32,000 nucleotides of DNA from the NCBI RefSeq assembly GCF_039383305.1, contig NZ_CP135009.1, positions 30,001-62,000 of the forward strand. The letters run 5' to 3'. The DNA is from Candidatus Saccharimonadota bacterium. GTDB taxonomy: Bacteria > Pseudomonadota > Gammaproteobacteria > Enterobacterales > Enterobacteriaceae. Below are positions 7,071 to 27,018 of the stretch, piece by piece. The stretch's first letter is position 1, and the number at the start of each line of letters is the position of its first letter. The translations under genes were made by a program, and so were the position numbers. Under the pieces are notes generated by a model. The model saw only the letters and a program-made list of their open reading frames with translations, made no database searches and was not told the DNA's origin.

Positions 7071-7483
7071 TGTTTTTAAATTTCCTTATAAGATTTTATA
7101 TAATAATTTTTTAAGATTAATAAAAAAATTTTCTTATTAAAAATTTTATAATATGTATTTAAAGATATTTATTTATATAAATTTTTTATTAAGAATTATA
7201 GAAATTAAAAATTATATATTTGAAAATTTTTGCATATGTTTTTAGGAATTTTAAAAATAATTTAAAAAATATTTTAATTTAGAATATCTATAAGGAAGTA
7301 GATATTTTTATTGTATTTTACATTTTTTATGTATATTATGAAATTTTTATATATTATATTTTTTAATATTTTTAAAAATTAGGTAATAAATTATTGTTTA
7401 ATAAATTTTAGAAAATTTTTATAATATATAATATTTTTTTAATGAATTTAAAATATGTAAAAATAAATTTTATATTTAGTATT

Positions 7484-9340
7484 TTAAGAGTCATCTAAAA
7501 AACTTTTTAAAATCTCAGATCGGCTAGGATGACGTAACTTTCGTAAAGCTTTAGCTTCAATTTGTCTAATACGTTCTCGAGTAACATCAAATTGTTTTCC
7601 GACTTCTTCTAAAGTATGATCTGTATTCATATCGATTCCAAATCTCATACGAAGAACTTTAGCTTCTCGAGCGGTAAGACCAGATAATACATTATGAGTA
7701 ATATTTTTTAAACTTTCTGAAGTAGCTGATTCTAATGGTAATTCTAAATTTGTATCTTCAATAAAATCACCTAAATGAGAATCATCGTCGTCTCCTATTG
7801 GAGTTTCCATTGAAATAGGTTCTTTAGCAATTTTTAAAACTTTTCGAATTTTATCTTCTGGTATAGACATTTTTTCAGATAATTCTTCTGGTGTAGGTTC
7901 TCTTCCAATTTCTTGTAACATTTGTCGAGATATACGATTAAGTTTATTAATAGTTTCGATCATATGTACAGGTATTCGAATAGTTCTTGCTTGATCTGCA
8001 ATAGATCTAGTAATTGCTTGACGGATCCACCATGTGGCATATGTAGAAAATTTATATCCTCTTCGATACTCAAATTTGTCTACAGCTTTCATTAAGCCAA
8101 TATTTCCTTCTTGTATTAAATCTAAAAATTGTAATCCTCTATTGGTATATTTTTTTGCAATAGAAATAACTAATCTTAAATTTGCTTCTACCATTTCTTT
8201 TTTAGCGCATTTAGTTTTTGCTTCTCCTATAGAAATTTGTTTATAAATATTTTTAATTTGTTGAATAGTTAATCCTGTTTTTTTTTCTATTAAATTTAGT
8301 TGATGAATATTTTTAAGAATATTTTTTTTATGTTGTATAATTTTTTTTGACCATTTTGTTTTAAAATTTTTAATTTTATTTAACCAGAATTTTTGTATAT
8401 TTTGATTTTTAAATAATGTTAAAAATTTTTTTTTAGGCATTTTACATGTTTCAACGCAAATTTTCATTAAAAAATTTTCTTGTAAACGAATTTTTTTGAT
8501 TAGGATTTGCATGTGATTTACTAAAAGATTAAATTGTTTTGGTACTAGACGAAATTGTTTAAATATTTTTGATAATTTTAAAATAGCATTAATAGAATCT
8601 TGATGATGTCTTTTTTTTTTTTGTATAATATTATAAGTTAGAAAATACTGTTTACGTAATTTTTTAAATTTTTTTTTTGCTAAAATTGGATCAATATGAT
8701 TTTCAGTATCTTCAGGTATCATATTGTTATTTAAAGAATGAATTTTATTATTATTTTTATTATTTAATTTATTAATTTTTTTTTTGTCAATTAATGTAGG
8801 TATAATAATTTTAATTTTTGGTGTTAATGTAAGGTCAATAAATCCTGTAATGATTTCTGAAAGTTTCAGAAATCCTTTTTCTACTTTTTTGTATTGTTCT
8901 AATAAATATAAAATAGTTTTAGGGTATTCTGCAATAGAAGATTGGACTTGATGAATACCTTCCTCAATTCTTTTAGCTAAATTTATTTCACCTTCACGTG
9001 TTAATAAATCTACAGTTCCCATTTCTCTCATATACATACGAACTGGATCTGTTGTTCTACCTAATTCAGTTTCTACTTGAGATAAAACTCTTTCTGTCGT
9101 TTCTGCTACATCTTCTTCGACATTAGTAGGTGGCTCATTTAGTATTAAATTTTCTATATCACGAGCTTCTGCAACAATCTGTATTCCTAAATCATTAATT
9201 ATTTGAATAATATCTTTAATTTGTTCTGGATCAATTATATTATTTGGAAGATAATCATTTATTTCAGAATATGTTAAATATCCTTGCTCTTTTCCGTGTA
9301 AAACAAGTAATTTTAACTGTGATTGTGGGTTTTGTTCCAT
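7484..9340 (-). CDS. rpoD: RNA polymerase sigma factor RpoD (sigma70)
   Basis: The 618-aa ORF has region 2 ([27 protein letters not shown]) and region 4.2 ([30 protein letters not shown]) almost identical to the enterobacterial protein. The central non-conserved region is K/N-rich. Confidence 0.97.
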
Positions 9341-19158: not shown

Positions 19159-20829
19159 ATGAATTTTAAAAATTTATTATTTAAAGATGTTAAAAAAAAA
19201 TATAATTATTTAATGAATTATTTTTTTAAAAATTATCAAGTTTTTTTTATTTTTTTTTCTGGTATATGTGCAATAATATTTTCTATTATTTTTTGGATTC
19301 GTTCAGAAAATTATAAAATTTTATATGATTCCATTTCTAGAATTGAAGGAAGTGAAATTATAAAAAAATTAACAAGAATGAAAATTCCATATAAATTAGA
19401 TGAAAAAACTGGATCTATTTTAGTGCCAGAAAAAAAAATACAAGAAATAAAGTTTAAGTTAGCATATAAAAAAAATTTTTTTAAAAAAAATAATGGTTTT
19501 GAGATTTTAGATAAAGAAAAATTTGGAATTAGTGCGTTTAATGAAAAAATTAATTATAATCGTAGTTTAGAAGGTGAATTAGCGAGAACTTTACAAATAT
19601 TATATCCAATTAAAAATGTTCGTATTCATTTATCTATTCCTCAGGAATCTAGTTTCTTACATACTAATCATAATAATATTTCGGCTTCTATTTTATTATT
19701 TTTAGATTCTAAAATAAAATTAGATTTTTTACAAATAGAATCTTTAGTTCATTTTGTAGCTTTTAGTGTTCCTAACCTTACTTGTGATAAAATTGTTATT
19801 ATGGATCAGTTTGGAAATATGTTAAATACTATTGTACCTAATTTAAAAGATAATTATTTTTTTCATTTTTTAGAATTATATAATCAGCAATTAGAAAAAA
19901 AAATTAAAACTAGTATTACACAATTATTAACCCCAATTTTAGGTATTAAAAATTTTATTGTTCAAGTAACTGTTCAACAATTAGAAAATTTGTCTTTTAA
20001 TCAACAAAAAAAAGATAGAGTTTTGTATACAAAAGATAATAATAGTTTATTAAAATTAGTTCCTGAATATTTTAATGAGTTAGGAATTTCTTCTAATTCT
20101 GATTTTTTTTCTTCTAAAATGAAAAAAAAAATTTTTTTTAAAAAAAAAGAAAAATTACCTATTGAACAAAAAAAAAAAAAAATTAAAAAATCTGTAAATA
20201 CTATTGTAAAAAATAAAAAAAAAAATACTAAATTAAATAAAAGAAAAGATTATAAATATCATATTTTAAAATCTAAAAATATTTTTTTTAATGGTAAAAA
20301 AAGTATTTCTATCGTAATAATTTTAAATTATTATAAAAATTTAAAAGGAGAATTAGTTTCTTTTACCTCTACTGAATTGAATAATTTTAAATTTTTAATT
20401 AAATCGAGTTTACCGTTTCTTTCAAATTATCAAAATACTATTCGGGTTTTTAATCAATTATTTATTATTAGTCAGAAAAATATTTCGAAAAATATTTTTT
20501 TTAGAATATGGAATATTTTTTTTATAAAGAAAAATTTTTTATATTATTTTTTATTTTTTTTATTTTTTTTAATTTTTTGTATAAAATATAAAATTAATAA
20601 AATTTTTCAATATATTTTTAAAAAATATTGTCTAATTAAAATTTTTAATATTAATAAAAAACCTTTTTTAATTTCACAAAAAGATTTTCAGAAAAATTCT
20701 TTACAAAAGTTAAATAATAATAAAAATTCTAATTTTATCATTTCGAATATTCGAAAAAAAATATTAAATATGAGCGCAAAAACAATTGCGAAAATAATTC
20801 GTATTTGGTTTAAAAAAATGGAAAATTAA
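19159..20829 (+). CDS. fliF: Flagellar M-ring protein FliF
   Basis: The 556-aa ORF compares with 552 aa in E. coli. An N-terminal TM segment is followed by ISRIEGSEIIKKLTRMKIPYKLDEKTGSILVPEKKIQEIKFKLA, like FliF LSDQDGGAIVAQLTQMNIPYRF..IEVPADKVHELRLRLA. AGGA sits 7 nt upstream. A lysine-rich insertion includes an A15 tract. Confidence 0.9.
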   Translation: MNFKNLLFKDVKKKYNYLMNYFFKNYQVFFIFFSGICAIIFSIIFWIRSENYKILYDSISRIEGSEIIKKLTRMKIPYKLDEKTGSILVPEKKIQEIKFKLAYKKNFFKKNNGFEILDKEKFGISAFNEKINYNRSLEGELARTLQILYPIKNVRIHLSIPQESSFLHTNHNNISASILLFLDSKIKLDFLQIESLVHFVAFSVPNLTCDKIVIMDQFGNMLNTIVPNLKDNYFFHFLELYNQQLEKKIKTSITQLLTPILGIKNFIVQVTVQQLENLSFNQQKKDRVLYTKDNNSLLKLVPEYFNELGISSNSDFFSSKMKKKIFFKKKEKLPIEQKKKKIKKSVNTIVKNKKKNTKLNKRKDYKYHILKSKNIFFNGKKSISIVIILNYYKNLKGELVSFTSTELNNFKFLIKSSLPFLSNYQNTIRVFNQLFIISQKNISKNIFFRIWNIFFIKKNFLYYFLFFLFFLIFCIKYKINKIFQYIFKKYCLIKIFNINKKPFLISQKDFQKNSLQKLNNNKNSNFIISNIRKKILNMSAKTIAKIIRIWFKKMEN

Positions 20830-20835
20830 AATTGT

Positions 20836-21426
20836 ATGGAAAAAATAAAAATTATTCAAAAAATTGCAATTTTTTTATTATCTTTAAATAAAAGAAAAAT
20901 TATAGAAGTATTAAAATTTCTTGATAAAAAAGAAATTATAATTTTTAGTGAGGAAATGTTTAAAATTGATAAAAAATTATTAAAAAATAGTAACAACATT
21001 TTAAAAGAATTTTTAGAAGTTTATAAATTTTATTTTTCACATAAATTTCAAAATTTTGATCAAGTGATGTTATTATTAAAAAATTCTATTGTAAAAAATA
21101 AAGATCAAAATGTTATAAAAAAACCTCAAATTAAATATAAATTTTTAAATAAAATCTTATTTTTAAATACATTAAAAAGTTTTGACATTTTTAATTTTTT
21201 AAAAAATGAATCAAGTATGATTATTAGTATTTTTTTAATTTATTTAAAAAAAAAAAAGTCTTTAAAAATATTTTTTTTATTTAAAAAAAAAAAACGTTTA
21301 AAAATTTTTAAAAATATTAAAAATTTTACTGGTATTAAAAAATTTGGATTTTTTATTTTAAATCGAATTTTAAAAGATAAATTTAAAAAATTTAATTTTA
21401 TTATTAAAAAAAAAAAGAGTATTTAA
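20836..21426 (+). CDS. fliG: Flagellar rotor/switch protein FliG, truncated to the N-terminal and middle domains (196 aa vs 331 aa in E. coli)
   Basis: [33 protein letters not shown] aligns with E. coli [59 protein letters not shown] aligns with [36 protein letters not shown]. The ORF ends near E. coli residue ~200. Only 157 bp remain before fliH, with stops in all frames. Confidence 0.78.
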   Translation: [196 protein letters not shown]

Positions 21427-21583: not shown

Positions 21584-22485
21584 ATGTTAGATATAAAAAA
21601 AAAAAATGGAAAAAATGGCATCCACCAGTTTTAACAAAAAAAAAAAATATTAAAAAAAAAATACAAAATAAAAAATTTTTATTTTCTAAAAATTTAAATA
21701 TTCAAAATAATAAAAAGATAAAAAAATGTTTATTTAATATTCATAAAAAAGATTGTAAAATAAATTTATCATTAAAATCTTTAAAATTAAATCAAAAATT
21801 ATGTAAGGAAGGTTATCAAATAGGATATAAAGAAGGGCATCAAGCAGGATATAAAGAAGGGCATCAAGCAGGATATAAAGAAGGGCATCAAGCAGGATAT
21901 AAAGAAGGGCATCAAGCAGGATATAAAGAAGGGCATCAAGCAGGATATAAAGAAGGATATACAGAAGGATATAATGTTTCTGATTTCGTTCAAAAATTTC
22001 AAATTACAAAAAAAAATTTGCGAGATTTTGAAAAAAAATATATTTCTTTTATTTTAAAAGAAAAAATTCATAAAATTAATCTTTTATTAACAGAATTTAA
22101 AAAATCAATTATTATGTTAAATGATGATGTTTCATTAAAATTGTTTGAAATATCAATTAAAATTTCTGAATTTATAGTTTCTGATGTTTTATTAGTCGAT
22201 AAATTTTTAGTATTACGAAAAATTTCTATGATATTAAAAAAAGTTAAAAATTCTATGGAAAATTTAATAATTAAAGTACATTCAAAAAATGAATTTTTAG
22301 TTAAAAAAAAATTTTCTGCTTTTTTTCAAAGTTATGATTGGAAAATTTTAATTGATAATACATTAGATCAATATAGTTGTTATGTAATTATTGATAATAT
22401 GGAAATTGATGGAACAATATCTGCAATTTGGAATTCTGTATATGAACTATCAGGAATCACTAAGGATAAAAAAGATGATAATTAA
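21584..22485 (+). CDS. fliH: Flagellar export ATPase regulator FliH; reading frame interrupted at an A12 tract near the 5' end (needs +1 A to be in frame)
   Basis: AGAGGA plus ATG 21584 give MLDIKKK, then a stop at 21632 in that frame. The long frame (open 21574-22485, no start codon of its own) reads KKWKKWHPPVL.. (E. coli FliH LPWKTWTPDDL), then a GYKEGHQA repeat ladder (E. coli GYQAGIAEGRQQGHEQGYQEG), then the C-terminal domain. The stop lies 11 nt inside fliI. Confidence 0.8.
21823..21956 (+). repeat. Perfect 24-bp tandem repeat, 5 full copies plus a 14-nt partial copy, in frame within fliH (GYKEGHQA units)
   Basis: GGATATAAAGAAGGGCATCAAGCA occurs at 21823, 21847, 21871, 21895 and 21919 with no mismatch. 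Degenerate copies flank it (KEGYQI upstream, GYKEGYTEGYN downstream). Confidence 0.97.
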
Positions 22486-23875
22486 TCAAAATCCTTGGTA
22501 TCAAAAATTAAATAATTTTGAAAATAAAATAGAATTTTTATCTGATTTGATATTTTTTGGTAGATTAATAAGTGTGAATGATTTAGTATTAGAAGTAGTT
22601 GGTTTACAACAAGAAATTGGATCTTTATGTTATATAGAATGTTTTAGGAAGAAAAAAAAAATTTTAGTAACGTGTGAAATTATTGGTTTTAGAGAAAAAA
22701 AGACTTTTTTAATTTCTTTTGATTATACTTATAATTTCTTTCCTGGAGCTCGTGTTTTTATTAAAAGTCAAAAAAAAAATTTTTTAGAAAATTCTCAGAT
22801 TTTTCCTTTTGGTAGAGGATTGTTAGGCAGAATTTTAGATAGTACAGGTTTTCCTTTAGATCAATTAGGGACATTTAAAGGGGAAATATTTTATAAATCT
22901 TTTTATCATAAAAATATTAATCCATTAAAAAGAACTCCCATTACTAAAATTTTTGATACAGGTATACAAGCAATTAATAGTTTATTAACTATTGGTCAAG
23001 GTCAAAGAATAGGAATTTTTGCGCGTCCAGGAGTAGGAAAAAGTTTATTATTAGGTATGATTACACGTTATTCTGCTGTAGAGATTATTATTGTTGCTTT
23101 AGTTGGAGAAAGAAATCGAGAAGTATTAGATTTTGTTCATAATATTTTAAATAAAGAAAGTTTAAAGAAATCTATTATTATTGTATCTACCGCTGATTCA
23201 CCTCCAATATTACGAATTAAAGCTGTCTCTTATGCTACTTCTTTAGCTGAATTTTTTCGTTCTTTAAATAAAAATGTTTTATTAATTTGTGACTCTCTAA
23301 CACGTTATGCTATTGCATATCGTGAAATTTCTTTATCATTAGGCGCTTTCCCTATTTCTAGAGGATATCCAGTTTCTATTTTTTCAAATATACCTTCTTT
23401 GATTGAAAGGACTGGAAATTCTATGAATAAAAATGGTACTATTACTTCTTTTTATACTATTTTAACGGAGGGGGATGAAGATAATGATCCGATTTTAGAT
23501 ATTTCAAAATCTATTTTAGATGGTCATATTATGTTATCTAACATATTATCTAATGCTGGTCATTATCCAGCGATTGACATTGAATTATCTATTAGTCGGT
23601 TAATGTCTTCGATTGTATCTTCTTCACATTTAAAAAATGCAATTTTTTTAAAGAAATTAATTTCATGTTATAATACACATAAAGATTTAATTACGTTGGG
23701 TGCTTATGTACCAGGAAAAAATTTTTTATTAGATCAATCTGTACAAATGTGGCCATTAATAGAAAAATTTTTAAAACAAGATTTTTTATTTAGTGTTTCA
23801 TATGATACTTCTTTATTACATTTAGAAAATTTATTAAAAAATTTATATGTGAAAAAAGAGAAAATTAATATATGA
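22475..23875 (+). CDS. fliI: Flagellum-specific (type III export) ATPase FliI
   Basis: Walker A is FARPGVGKSLLLGM and Walker B is LLICDSLTRYA, and PPILR and GHYPAID are conserved. The start is set at ATG 22475 (AAGGA 8 nt upstream), giving 466 aa against 457 aa in E. coli. The ORF-track start at 22391 lies inside fliH. Confidence 0.95.
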   Translation: MIINQNPWYQKLNNFENKIEFLSDLIFFGRLISVNDLVLEVVGLQQEIGSLCYIECFRKKKKILVTCEIIGFREKKTFLISFDYTYNFFPGARVFIKSQKKNFLENSQIFPFGRGLLGRILDSTGFPLDQLGTFKGEIFYKSFYHKNINPLKRTPITKIFDTGIQAINSLLTIGQGQRIGIFARPGVGKSLLLGMITRYSAVEIIIVALVGERNREVLDFVHNILNKESLKKSIIIVSTADSPPILRIKAVSYATSLAEFFRSLNKNVLLICDSLTRYAIAYREISLSLGAFPISRGYPVSIFSNIPSLIERTGNSMNKNGTITSFYTILTEGDEDNDPILDISKSILDGHIMLSNILSNAGHYPAIDIELSISRLMSSIVSSSHLKNAIFLKKLISCYNTHKDLITLGAYVPGKNFLLDQSVQMWPLIEKFLKQDFLFSVSYDTSLLHLENLLKNLYVKKEKINI

Positions 23876-24315
23876 AAGTAACAAGAAATTTATTCGTTAG
23901 TTTACGAAAAAAAATATATTTTGAATTACAAGAAAAATTTTTTATATTAAAAAAATCTTTAGAAGTAGAAAAAAAAAATTCTATATATTTAATAACAATA
24001 AAAAAATACTTGGTAGAATATACTAAAATTTTTTCAAAAAATCTCTTTAAAGGTATCTTAATTTTTCAATTAAAATTTTTTGAAAAATTTAGAAATTTAT
24101 TAAAAAAATCTATTTTTTTACAAAAAAAAATTTTAAAAGATTTAATTGAAAAAAATTCTTTTTTTTTAAATGAAATTCAAAACCTGTTTCTTATTTTTAA
24201 AAAATGGGAAAAATTAGAAAAACATTATTTACAAATACAAATAAAAAAAAAAAAATTAAAGATTAATCGTCAAGAAGAATTTTTATCTCAAAATTTTTAT
24301 ATATTATTACATTAA
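23872..24315 (+). CDS. fliJ: Flagellar export chaperone/stalk protein FliJ
   Basis: The 147-aa length equals E. coli FliJ. There is an ATGA overlap with fliI. The composition suggests a coiled coil. The C-terminal KKWEKLEKHYLQIQIKKKKLKINRQEEFLSQ resembles SWREKKQRLQAWQTL..NRLDQKKMDEFAQ. Confidence 0.7.
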   Translation: MKVTRNLFVSLRKKIYFELQEKFFILKKSLEVEKKNSIYLITIKKYLVEYTKIFSKNLFKGILIFQLKFFEKFRNLLKKSIFLQKKILKDLIEKNSFFLNEIQNLFLIFKKWEKLEKHYLQIQIKKKKLKINRQEEFLSQNFYILLH

Positions 24316-24437
24316 TAATTTTTTTATTTTTTTTATAGGATATAAATGATATTTTTGTATATAGACATATTAAAAAAATTTATTATTAAATTTTAAAAGA
24401 ATATATTTTTTTTAAAAAAAAATTATAAGGAAATCTT

Positions 24438-25847
24438 TTGTATATAAAAAAATTAAAATTTATGAAATTTTATTGGTTAAATAATCAAAAAAATTTAAAA
24501 TATTCTTTTAAAAAAAAAGAAGAAATAAAAATTAAAATTTTTAAAAATTTTTCAATTATAAAAAAAAAAATAGATTTATATTTTTTTGAAAAAAATTTTT
24601 TTTTAGAAGAAAAAATTTTTAAAATATGTTCTCAATTAGAAAAAATTTTTAAAAAAGAATTTGATTTAACTTGTAAAGTGAATTATAAAATTCAAAATTA
24701 TTTTCAAAATTCTACTATGAAAATATCTCATGATTTGTGTTTTTTAGAAAAATTATATTTTTTAAAAGATTTTAATAGTATTTTAGGATTATTAATATCT
24801 CAAAATATGATTAATTTTTTTTTAAATATATTTTTAAATCAAAAAAAAAATAATATTTTAATAAAATTTAAAAATAAATATTCGAAAATTGAATTAACAA
24901 TTTTTAAAATTTTAACTAAATTTCTTTATAAAATTTTTTATAAAAATTTTCTTTTAATATTTCAGGAAATACGATTTTATGATATTTCTAATTTATTTAT
25001 GAAAAAAAAAAATATTAAAGAAAATGAAAATTTTAATTTAATTATTAAATTTTATATTACATCTCAATATGGTTCGGGTATTTTTTTTAACATATATTCA
25101 ACTAATATTATAAAAAATTTTTTATTTAAAAAAAAGAAAAAAATTTTATTTCAAAAAAAAAAAATATATTTTGCAACATTATATAGTTCTATGTTAATGT
25201 TGCAAAAAATTCCATTTATACTTAGGGTTTTTTCTCAAAATTATTTTATTTTTTTATCTGAATTTTTAAAATGGAAATGTAATTATATTTTTTTTATAAA
25301 AGAAATAAAAATTGTAACAGCATATATTGAAAGATTTTCAATTTTTTTAGCTAAATATGGGCTTTATAATAAAGAGTATTCACTTCAAATTTTAAAAATT
25401 TTAAAAATTCAAAAAAAAAATTTATTTTTTCAGGAGTCCGATATGAATATAGATGAACAAAATAATAAAAAAATATTAGAAAAATCTTTGAAAAATTTTA
25501 CATTAGAAAAAAATAATTCTAATTTTCAAGATTCTATTTTAAAAAATCAAAAAAAAGATTCATCTTATAAAATTTCGAAAGAAAAAACTATTCTTTCAAA
25601 AAATTTTAAAAATTTAAAAATTATTTCTCATTTACCAATGAATATTACAGTAGAATTAGGTTATAAAAAAATTACTATTAAAAAATTATTAACGTTAACA
25701 AATGGATCTATAATTTCATTAAAAAAAAAAGAAGGAGATGCTTTAAATATTTTTGCAAATGGATATTTAATAGCTCAAGGAGAATTAGTAATGGTAAAAA
25801 AAAAATATGGAATACGAATTATTTCGATGATTTCTGATCCTATCTAA
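24438..25847 (+). CDS. fliM: Single ORF encoding FliM (residues 1-335) fused in frame to FliN (residues 336-469)
   Basis: The N-terminal ~335 aa are collinear with FliM in length and hydrophobic pattern (C-terminal IPFILRVFSQNYFIFLSEFLKWKCNYIFF..YGLYNKEYSLQILKIL vs LELVANFADISLRLSQILKLNPGDVLPI..YGTLNGQYALRIEHLI). No stop codon precedes the FliN part. TTG 24438 has AAGGA 6 nt upstream, and ATG 24462 is an alternative start. Confidence 0.75.
   Translation: MYIKKLKFMKFYWLNNQKNLKYSFKKKEEIKIKIFKNFSIIKKKIDLYFFEKNFFLEEKIFKICSQLEKIFKKEFDLTCKVNYKIQNYFQNSTMKISHDLCFLEKLYFLKDFNSILGLLISQNMINFFLNIFLNQKKNNILIKFKNKYSKIELTIFKILTKFLYKIFYKNFLLIFQEIRFYDISNLFMKKKNIKENENFNLIIKFYITSQYGSGIFFNIYSTNIIKNFLFKKKKKILFQKKKIYFATLYSSMLMLQKIPFILRVFSQNYFIFLSEFLKWKCNYIFFIKEIKIVTAYIERFSIFLAKYGLYNKEYSLQILKILKIQKKNLFFQESDMNIDEQNNKKILEKSLKNFTLEKNNSNFQDSILKNQKKDSSYKISKEKTILSKNFKNLKIISHLPMNITVELGYKKITIKKLLTLTNGSIISLKKKEGDALNIFANGYLIAQGELVMVKKKYGIRIISMISDPI
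25443..25847 (+). CDS. fliN: Flagellar switch/C-ring protein FliN (possible independent initiation inside the fused ORF)
   Basis: AGGAG (25432-25436) lies 6 nt upstream of the in-frame ATG 25443. The 134-aa product compares with 137 aa in E. coli. NITVELGYKKITIKKLLTLTNGSIISL..LNIFANGYLIAQGELVMVKKKYGIRI matches KLTVELGRTRMTIKELLRLTQGSVVAL..LDILINGYLIAQGEVVVVADKYGVRI. Confidence 0.85.
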   Translation: MNIDEQNNKKILEKSLKNFTLEKNNSNFQDSILKNQKKDSSYKISKEKTILSKNFKNLKIISHLPMNITVELGYKKITIKKLLTLTNGSIISLKKKEGDALNIFANGYLIAQGELVMVKKKYGIRIISMISDPI

Positions 25848-25883: not shown

Positions 25884-26216
25884 ATGTATAATTTTAGAAA
25901 AAATTTTTTATTTATTTTTTTAAACAAATGTTTTTATTTTTTTTATAATAATGAATCTTTAAAGTATATAAATTTTTCTGTAATATTGTTTTTATGTTTT
26001 ATTTTTTTGTTTTTTTTTTATATTAAAAAAACAGGTTTAGTAAATACTACTAAAACTTCTAATTCTATTACTTTATTAGAGCAATTTTATTTAACTGCTC
26101 ATCAAAAAATTATTATTATAAAGATTAGGAAGGTAAATTTAGTTTTAGGAGTTACAGAAAAAAATATCAATTTTTTATATATATTACCATCTTCAATAAA
26201 AAAAAATTATAATTAA
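25884..26216 (+). CDS. fliO: Flagellar biosynthesis protein FliO
   Basis: The 110-aa ORF sits between fliN and fliP and has one hydrophobic segment (FSVILFLCFIFLFFFY). SITLLEQFYLTAHQKIIIIKIRKVNLVLGVTEKNINFLYILPSS matches E. coli FliO LKISASASLGARERVVVVDVEDARLVLGVTAGQINLLHKLPPS. Confidence 0.7.
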   Translation: MYNFRKNFLFIFLNKCFYFFYNNESLKYINFSVILFLCFIFLFFFYIKKTGLVNTTKTSNSITLLEQFYLTAHQKIIIIKIRKVNLVLGVTEKNINFLYILPSSIKKNYN

Positions 26217-26280: not shown

Positions 26281-27018
26281 ATGAATTTTTTTTTAAAGTA
26301 CATTTTATATTTTTTTATAAGTTTTTTTCCAAGAATTCTATATGCTAAAAATTTTTTTTCTTTAGTAGATACAGCAAAATATTCGCAAAATTTTTGGAAT
26401 GTTTCTTTACAAACTTTTTTAATTTTTTTTTTATTAAGTTTTATACCAGCTATTATTTTATTAATGACGAGTTTTACAAGAATTATTATAGTTTTTGGAT
26501 TATTACGAAATGCTTTAGGGACTCCATATTCTCCACCGAATCAAATTTTAATTACTTTATCTTTATTTTTAACTTTTTTTATTATGTCTCCAGTATTTAC
26601 TAAAATTTATTCTCAAGCTTATGTACCATATTTTCAAGAAAAATTAGATTTTAAAAATTCCATGCATAATGCTATTAAACCATTACATCAATTTATGCGT
26701 CATCAAACTCGTAAAACTGATCTTTTATTATTTTTTGAATTAGCAAAAATTAAGTATCCTAAAAAAGAAAATAATATTCCTTTAAGAATTTTATTACCTG
26801 CATATATAATTAGTGAATTAAAAACTGCATTTCAAATTGGGTTTTCAATTTTTTTACCTTTTTTAGTAATTGATTTAGTGGTAGCTAGTATATTAATGGC
26901 TTTAGGTATGATGATGGTGTCTCCTTCTACAATTTCATTACCATTAAAATTAATTTTGTTTGTATTAAGTGATGGTTGGAATTTATTAATTACTGCATTA
27001 TCAAAAAGTTTTTTTTAA
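26281..27018 (+). CDS. fliP: Flagellar export gate protein FliP
   Basis: The 245-aa length equals E. coli Fli[47 protein letters not shown] is almost identical to the enterobacterial protein. Confidence 0.96.

Follow-up and report, generated by a model that had tools for sequence, protein, structure and literature searches.

A fused fliM-fliN reading frame in Buchnera aphidicola of Nippolachnus piri and the homopolymer beside its junction

Does a gene fusion that lies next to a long homopolymer represent a stable arrangement, or is it one position of a frameshift switch? The question is raised by the flagellar genes fliM and fliN in the stretch of DNA analyzed here, a window of 32,000 nucleotides (nt) from contig NZ_CP135009.1 belonging to Buchnera aphidicola of the aphid Nippolachnus piri. 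In this window both genes form a single open reading frame (ORF) on the + strand (24438-25847, 469 aa, TTG start, stop codon 25845-25847), in which 335 FliM-derived codons run into FliN without a stop (..KIQKKNLFFQESD-MNIDEQ..). An A10 run (25411-25420, codons CAA AAA AAA AAT, flanked by C and T) lies in the FliM tail, and is followed by an AGGAG Shine-Dalgarno (SD) motif (25432-25436) placed 6 nt before an in-frame ATG (codon 336, 25443-25445), the ancestral start codon of FliN. The initial annotation of this DNA described the fusion and the AGGAG and ATG retained by FliN, and took the A10 run as a potential toggle between fused and separate genes, derived from an older A9 layout. We found the ORF, the run, the motif, the ATG and the two TGA codons reached after a slip exactly where it had placed them, to the base; the 469-codon frame and the start signals of FliN were likewise as described, while the toggle found no support. 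The fusion is old, stable and inherited, it is shared with related Buchnera, and it is not one state of a homopolymer switch.

The fused ORF and its orthologues

The product of the ORF is 100% identical to WP_343126587.1, a RefSeq "FliM/FliN family flagellar motor switch protein" of Buchnera aphidicola; NCBI annotates the region as a single coding sequence, and the FliI encoded at this locus carries the name Buchnera aphidicola (Nippolachnus piri). The fusion is thus already known, being annotated in RefSeq and mentioned in the Buchnera literature, where fliM and fliN "often occurred as fused genes" (Manzano-Marin et al., bioRxiv 10.1101/2022.08.28.505559). Slippage at homopolymers is likewise well known from Buchnera. 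Moreover, the same 469-aa protein is deposited under two GenBank accessions, in two N. piri genomes of 417,640 and 417,660 bp; the samples behind them, N. piri 09 (CP135006) and 10 (CP135009), were sequenced by Illumina NovaSeq 2x150 (PMC11193766). An identical fusion protein in two independently sampled Illumina genomes means that the fusion is not a sequencing error, and an A9 or A11 miscalled at the junction is very unlikely. Homopolymer length is a classic source of error, on which one could base the proposal that the true genome carries A9 or A11 and that the fusion is a miscall; however, the same frame relation is present in five other assemblies of four other lineages, obtained by different groups, and we regard that proposal as hardly credible.

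Orthologous loci were collected through FliI homologues and exact-protein look-ups, and the gene order fliH-fliI-fliJ-ORF-fliO-fliP-fliQ-fliR is conserved among the Buchnera loci compared. Four further lineages carry the fusion: Buchnera of Tuberolachnus salignus (387 aa, ..KNKNNNFFFKEKPN-MNQPS; CP135003, LN890285 and OZ035016, three projects with the same junction), of Cinara tujafilina (454 aa, ..FINKEDKY-MEQKGS; CP001817), a Lachninae-type Logan contig, SRR33594963 (L082; 455 aa, ..VNDIEKKI-MSKKDG), and Buchnera of Chaitoregma tattakana (456 aa, ..LTCGDK-MNNQLE; CP134991). In these fusions of 387-456 aa, as in N. piri, the FliM tail is joined to the FliN methionine and the internal ATG is retained with a purine-rich element upstream. 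The A-run is what sets N. piri apart, being absent from the junction of all four other fused lineages: T. salignus has instead a T10 situated 15 nt before the FliN ATG, and the other three have no run of at least 8 at the junction.

Separate genes were found in Buchnera of Acyrthosiphon pisum, where fliM and fliN overlap by 8 nt, and of Nipponaphis monzeni, where a 48-nt spacer lies between them. In Escherichia ruysiae the two genes overlap by 4 nt (fliM end 5112, fliN start 5109 in locus L055), and with an ATG start of fliN the overlap must be ATGA. One Cinara clade (Cinara cedri, C. kochiana, C. pseudotaxifoliae and contig SRR23525766) is also unfused, with a FliM of 204-234 aa that ends before the SpoA domain, a gap of 130-220 nt, and then fliN with its own start.

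To place these states we used a neighbour-joining tree of FliI plus FliP (653 columns, bootstrap values of 95-100%), which has the topology (Escherichia,(A. pisum,(Chaitoregma,((N. piri,T. salignus),((C. tujafilina,SRR33594963),split-gene Cinara clade))))). The fused lineages are paraphyletic around the split-gene Cinara clade, a topology that makes the fused state ancestral within Lachninae, and the split state in Cinara is best read from these sequences as a secondary deletion of the first SpoA domain together with the junction. Nipponaphis monzeni, which is hormaphidine like Chaitoregma, has separate genes, and the Chaitoregma fusion therefore probably arose independently.

Other searches added little to this set. 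A FliP scan of genome contigs returned free-living Enterobacterales and Burkholderiales only and no Buchnera, and an exact look-up of the 488-aa FliI (P0022) gave no match. The fusion itself, a low-complexity and A/T-biased query, recovered in a word-indexed protein search itself and one contig protein. An exhaustive search of representatives gave mostly FliN domains of all bacteria, plus two more long collinear proteins (P0149 and P0150) that come without context.

The junction sequences of the two closest relatives indicate when the genes were joined. The N. piri junction, TTAAAAATTCAAAAAAAAAATTTATTTTTTCAGGAG, and that of T. salignus, TTAAAAAATAAAAATAATAATTTTTTTTTTAAAGAG, align without gaps and in the same frame over the 36 nt before the SD motif, which implies that their common ancestor was already fused. 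As to the starting point, the coupled ATGA overlap foreseen by the initial annotation does exist in Escherichia; its proposal that an A9 version of that layout was ancestral to the N. piri gene does not stand, since the ancestor shared with T. salignus was already fused. The ATGA overlap thus appears from this comparison to be a deep ancestral layout, though not the direct ancestor of the N. piri state. From such a stop/start overlap a one-base frame change in the short, unconserved FliM tail would be enough to fuse the genes, and we propose that a single-base change of this kind joined them before the Lachninae Buchnera diverged, with a second, independent fusion probable in Chaitoregma.

The A10 run in the FliM tail

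When one A was removed in silico the FliM frame gave a 335-aa product ending in ..IQKKIYFFRSPI (IYFFRSPI), whose stop lies inside ATGA (TGA at 25444-25446, overlapping the fliN start); when one A was added, a 339-aa FliM resulted, ending at TGA 25454-25456. Any slip by a single A would accordingly release a separate FliM, as the initial annotation had predicted. This behaviour is shared by every comparable run of the gene: a one-base slip at any of the 15 A/T runs of at least 8 in the ORF leads to a stop within 0-35 codons, about one codon in 10 of the off-frames being a stop and the longest open off-frame stretch covering 51 codons, which makes a nearby stop after slippage a generic property of a 20% G+C genome.

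The run itself is equally ordinary. The window has 19.75% G+C and contains 84 A-runs of at least 8, 33 of them at least 10 long, and 27 T-runs of at least 10; A or T runs of at least 10 come once per 533 bp (about 60 in 32 kb), and seven A-runs of that size lie inside the fused ORF alone (A11, A10, A11, A12, A10, A10 and A10). Of all positions in the window, 3.5% have an A-run of at least 10 ending no more than 35 nt upstream, and 6.4% have an A or T run of that size so placed. The A10 next to the junction is not above chance expectation and belongs to the compositional background. Longer runs are carried by intact flagellar ORFs, such as the A15 of fliF (20168-20182), the A13 of fliJ (24243-24255) and the A12 within the FliM part (25153-25164), all of which should be far more prone to slippage than the A10.

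Its origin can also be read from the alignment with T. salignus, in which A10 faces AAAAATAATA. The uninterrupted run of N. piri is broken in T. salignus and vice versa, which argues that both runs arose by point substitution in Lys, Asn and Phe codons of an already fused tail. On this evidence the A10 appears to be a later, N. piri-lineage run, and A/T-biased substitution in the Lys/Asn codons of the tail would have made it inside the fused frame. The ATGA that a slip would restore is a consequence of FliN starting with Met-Asn (ATGAAT); as a conserved coupling signal it was rejected, since C. tujafilina has ATGGAA and SRR33594963 has ATGTCA at this position.

Run length at the A10 did not vary between isolates, the two N. 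piri consensus genomes encoding an identical protein. Elsewhere in the cluster run-length differences do occur: the T. salignus locus L085 differs from L083 and L084 by A7 versus A8 at about 8100-8107, with a called fliJ (7391-7843) of 130 versus 150 aa, a difference that lies away from the fliM-fliN junction.

Could the A10 nevertheless be a selected switch between fused and separate fliM and fliN, operating by phase variation or by programmed transcriptional slippage, with A9 and ATGA as the ancestral form? A slip in either direction does leave FliM alone, ending at the fliN ATG or 9 nt past it; the Escherichia genes do have the ATGA overlap; the T. salignus assemblies do differ in run length at another site; and Buchnera is a documented case of transcriptional slippage at long A/T runs, insertions becoming exponentially more frequent as runs lengthen, up to 11 nt (PMC5574713), and mixed mRNA pools in endosymbionts are reported by Tamas (2008) as summarised in PMC3017870. 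However, the junction run is missing from the four other fused lineages, it was made by substitution within a frame that was already fused, and it is A10 in both N. piri samples; similar runs occur every 533 bp and give close stops wherever they slip, two fused lineages have lost ATGA, and the fusion is ancestral on the tree. The initial annotation had itself held that fusions fixed without a homopolymer would leave nothing of the toggle, and such fusions are what C. tujafilina, SRR33594963 and Chaitoregma carry; in T. salignus the site lacks an A-run, with a T10 nearby. A selected switch at this site is in our opinion very improbable.

Comparison with described systems leads in the same direction. 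Phase-variable contingency loci with coding homopolymers are found, for example, in Campylobacter, Neisseria and Haemophilus. The N. piri gene resembles them in having a coding mononucleotide run whose length sets the frame, but differs in that the run lacks length variation between samples, conservation and enrichment over background, and in that it is not obvious what an obligate intracellular symbiont would gain from a stochastic switch. With the slippage cases of endosymbionts (Tamas 2008; Wernegreen 2010; Traverse & Ochman 2017) it shares a long coding A-run in an A/T-rich symbiont; in those cases, however, a broken genomic frame is rescued by slippage and some of the runs are conserved, whereas in N. 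piri the genome encodes an intact frame, the only effect of slippage would be to truncate the product, and the run is not conserved. Transcripts with A9 and A11 are probably made at this site, and slippage here, as at every long A/T run of the genome, would add a minority of FliM-only transcripts that we take to be unavoidable noise and not regulation.

The FliM frame, the internal start and two putative products

The fused protein falls into two parts that differ in how well they are recognised. FliMN_C (PF01052) matches residues 396-465 with E=4.2e-22 (78 bits against a cut-off of 23.8) and residues 269-322 only weakly (E=0.2), while FliN chains of PDB match the C-terminal part at E=1e-17. 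The Pfam FliM middle domain (PF02154) gave no match at E<=1 in the N. piri fusion and none at E<=0.1 in the other Lachninae copies, although it does match the FliM of A. pisum (APS) at 4e-13 and that of Chaitoregma at 5.6e-12. The FliM-derived portion (codons 1-335, 24438-25442) is assigned to FliM by its position, with fliJ upstream and fliN, fliO and fliP downstream, and because it aligns collinearly with recognised FliM proteins of Buchnera, C-terminal SpoA domain included; judged by sequence, it appears highly diverged.

Residues 271-466 align as one stretch with 4yxb_A, an engineered Salmonella FliM-FliN fusion, at E=8e-21 (phmmer), with weaker matches to YscQ-C and SpaO. The C-terminus of the fusion has therefore a tandem arrangement SpoA1-linker-SpoA2, according to this alignment and to the two FliMN_C stretches that are also detected by Pfam in each of the four fused orthologues (Chaitoregma matching Pfam FliM in addition). 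SpoA1, the C-terminal SpoA-type domain of FliM, occupies together with a short tail approximately residues 271-335 (25248-25442), and the FliN portion of 134 aa (25443-25847) consists of a fast-evolving linker followed by the conserved SpoA2 (~25623-25832).

We then compared rates of evolution by means of a crude Nei-Gojobori estimate of the ratio of non-synonymous to synonymous change (dN/dS). Between N. piri and T. salignus the FliM part reaches ~0.98 and the linker 1.4, as against 0.22 for SpoA2 of FliN, 0.27 for FliI and 0.32 for FliP; between C. tujafilina and SRR33594963 the value is 0.69 for FliM, 0.54 for its SpoA1 and 0.27 for SpoA2 of FliN. The FliM parts of N. piri and T. salignus show 217 non-synonymous differences in 240 aligned codons. 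As 9-13% of non-synonymous single-base changes are nonsense, tolerance of stops should have left 21-32 of them, and we counted none (P<1e-9); at this composition, 335 codons would stay open by chance with a probability of ~1e-15. These figures suggest that selection keeps the frame uninterrupted through a fast-evolving FliM part.

A comparable constraint is suggested for the start of FliN. The AGGAG-6 nt-ATG of N. piri pairs with the 3' end of the 16S RNA at -6.9 kcal/mol, which is stronger than each of the 10 starts called in the locus, whose median is -2.9, and than 97% of the internal in-frame ATGs (n = 131). Over 46 called starts the median is -3.7, compared with -1.0 over internal ATGs. 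In C. tujafilina the corresponding duplex has -5.8 kcal/mol, the best in its locus, and in T. salignus and SRR33594963 it has -2.9 and -3.1 kcal/mol. Across the four Lachninae fusions the motif is no weaker than is usual for a gene start. Within the fusion frame the motif is read as CAG GAG TCC, all of them rare codons (CAG 7.3% of Gln, GAG 7.0% of Glu, TCC 2.5% of Ser), with a joint synonymous probability of ~1.3e-4. Moreover, only one of the six ATG codons in the FliM and linker region of N. piri is also ATG in T. salignus, and this is codon 336, the FliN start, which is kept in 5 of 5 fused lineages; in the Cinara clade that lacks the upstream SpoA1, fliN begins at the homologous SD and ATG. 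Taken together, the duplex energies, codon choice and retention argue for selection on the FliN ribosome-binding site and ATG inside the fusion. AGGAG alone was tried as a marker of start sites and rejected, most of its 18 copies lying inside genes away from starts, and duplex energies were used instead.

We consider it probable, with moderate confidence, that these observations are best explained by a stable fusion with an incidental A10, in which the frame and the internal start are kept and two products are made. The whole ORF would give a full-length FliM-FliN of ~55 kDa with tandem SpoA1-SpoA2, and internal initiation at the retained start would give a free FliN of ~15 kDa; the proposal that both are made draws on the signals just described and on analogy with injectisomes. 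There, the SctQ proteins (Shigella Spa33, Yersinia YscQ, Salmonella SpaO/SsaQ) come from one gene encoding an N-terminal domain plus tandem SpoA1-SpoA2, with an in-frame internal SD and start just before SpoA2; the Buchnera gene has the same layout by sequence, and long and short products would be possible from it as well. Full-length SctQ (Spa33) is the counterpart of FliM fused to FliN, and SctQ-C (Spa33-C) that of free FliN, both forming a 1:2 complex (PMC4832279). The Buchnera architecture differs from SctQ in deriving from a recent fusion of two flagellar genes and in that its internal start is the old fliN start.

Covalent joining of both proteins has precedents in Salmonella. The initial annotation had mentioned a fusion with a partly functional C-ring, and such a mutant does exist in the literature: according to Kihara et al. 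(1996), as cited in PMC4832279, a FliM-FliN fusion mutant has fragmented C-rings, and, by the same citation, a mutant with the fusion only is complemented by FliN and not by FliM. The Buchnera protein resembles this mutant and the engineered FliM(SpoA)-FliN crystal fusion (PDB 4YXB/4YXC); these are, however, laboratory mutants or constructs from a motile bacterium, while the Buchnera fusion is natural and ancient and occurs in a non-motile symbiont without filament. In Buchnera basal bodies are numerous and carry no filaments, and the proteins discussed for preparations of A. pisum Buchnera include FliM and FliN (PMC8109811). The proposed arrangement would suit a flagellar apparatus reduced to a non-rotating basal body and export machine; the loss of the C-terminal domain of FliG in N. 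piri and T. salignus, described below, likewise indicates that the ring is not a motor.

Several results weigh against a functional two-product fusion. An AlphaFold2 model of the fusion from a 17-row alignment reached pLDDT 45 and pTM 0.25, with moderate confidence for the SpoA domain of FliN alone, and is too poor to judge a SpoA1-SpoA2 pseudodimer. The SD-like elements of two relatives, at -2.9 in T. salignus and -3.1 in SRR33594963, do not surpass an average start, and AGGAG is not start-specific, only one of its 18 + strand copies having an ATG at 4-12 nt that matches a known gene start. Slippage at the A10 could be biologically significant after all. The dN/dS of the FliM part, at ~0.7-1.0, is high, and together with the truncation of FliG and a frameshift in T. 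salignus fliM it implies that the full-length product may be of little function.

This last point leads to an alternative in which the fusion is a by-product of neutral decay, produced by a one-base indel at the ATGA overlap of a genome with weak repair, the FliM part being a functionless, eroding extension or leader and FliN, either as a domain or as a protein initiated internally, the only product that still matters. Besides the contrast in dN/dS between FliM (~0.98) and SpoA2, FliI and FliP, it is favoured by values of 0.88-0.93 for the truncated Cinara FliM, by the failure of Pfam FliM to detect any Lachninae copy, by the deletion of the SpoA domain of FliM in one Cinara clade, by the frameshift at T10 near the N-terminus of T. 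salignus fliM in three assemblies, and by the FliG proteins without C-terminal domain. Nevertheless, the 335-codon frame is intact where tens of nonsense substitutions (21-32) were expected, the truncated Cinara FliM is still open and conserved at 204-234 aa in four lineages, C. tujafilina and SRR33594963 show lower dN/dS both overall and in SpoA1, and Nei-Gojobori estimates are inflated in extremely A/T-biased genomes, so that ~1 is an upper bound. We consider purely neutral decay unlikely, though by no means far-fetched, and prefer the fusion with a kept frame and internal start.

Neighbouring genes and implications

Upstream of the TTG of the fused ORF, at 5 nt, lies an AAGGAA SD-like element (24427-24432, + strand) with an anti-SD duplex of -6.2 kcal/mol. 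Between fliJ and fliM nothing is encoded in N. piri (24316-24437), and the same holds for the T. salignus and Cinara loci; at this place A. pisum Buchnera carries two fliK-like ORFs, one of 104 aa and one of 222 aa with Flg_hook (L088 6868-7879), and Nipponaphis monzeni an ORF of 324 aa. From this comparison fliK appears to be lost in Lachninae.

Inside fliM, T. salignus has T10 (~8130-8150 in L083, L084 and L085) where N. piri has T9 (24596-24604), and the frame is shifted, which cuts off a 58-aa N-terminal ORF (L084 7976-8152) from the 387-aa fusion ORF in all three assemblies. This is a fixed homopolymer frameshift of the kind that has been proposed to be rescued by transcriptional slippage.

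The product of fliG (20836-21426) is only 196 aa long; it has FliG_N, matches FliG_M weakly and lacks FliG_C. FliG has 210 aa in T. salignus, and 307-332 aa, FliG_C included, in the Buchnera of Cinara, A. pisum and Chaitoregma. The FliM-binding, torque-generating domain of FliG thus appears, by sequence, to be lost in Tuberolachnini Buchnera. The gap of ~590 nt between the truncated fliG and fliH holds a 24-nt tandem repeat (21804-21974; consensus TAAAGAAGGGCATCAAGCAGGATA, 7.1 copies, 93% matches) that is far above the genome in G+C, and whose minus strand forms a 67-aa ORF with repeated FFISCLMP.

Downstream of that gap, FliH (22018-22485) is short, with 155 aa against the 216-229 aa of its Cinara and Chaitoregma counterparts. 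Its gene is overlapped over 95 nt by the longest fliI ORF (22391-23875); FliI has 488-492 aa at NCBI, and the start of fliI is uncertain. On the other side of the fusion, fliO (25884-26216) and fliP (26281-27018) are separate in the window, whereas in A. pisum Buchnera they are called as one 379-aa product (L088 9414-10553) with both FliO and FliP Pfam domains; these two genes are also remarked in the literature to be often fused in Buchnera.

What does the locus teach? In a 20% G+C genome a homopolymer at any gene boundary will resemble a frameshift switch, and a comparison of orthologues decides the matter quickly. The constraint that seems to act on the fused gene is unusual: the amino acids of FliM would be nearly free to change, while nonsense is strictly excluded and the internal FliN start strictly kept. 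If both products are made, Buchnera would offer a natural parallel to the full-length and short forms of SctQ, and this would be relevant to the organisation of a flagellar export apparatus that does not rotate and to the possible origin of the genes of the injectisome sorting platform. Tentatively, and knowing that it may well prove wrong, we suggest that the FliM-FliN fusions of the most reduced Buchnera are a flagellar re-invention of the SctQ gene of injectisomes, with a tandem-SpoA full-length protein and free FliN in an apparatus that has ceased to rotate and may act in export only. If this were true, these symbionts would provide a living example of the step in gene architecture that separates flagellar C-rings from injectisome sorting platforms.

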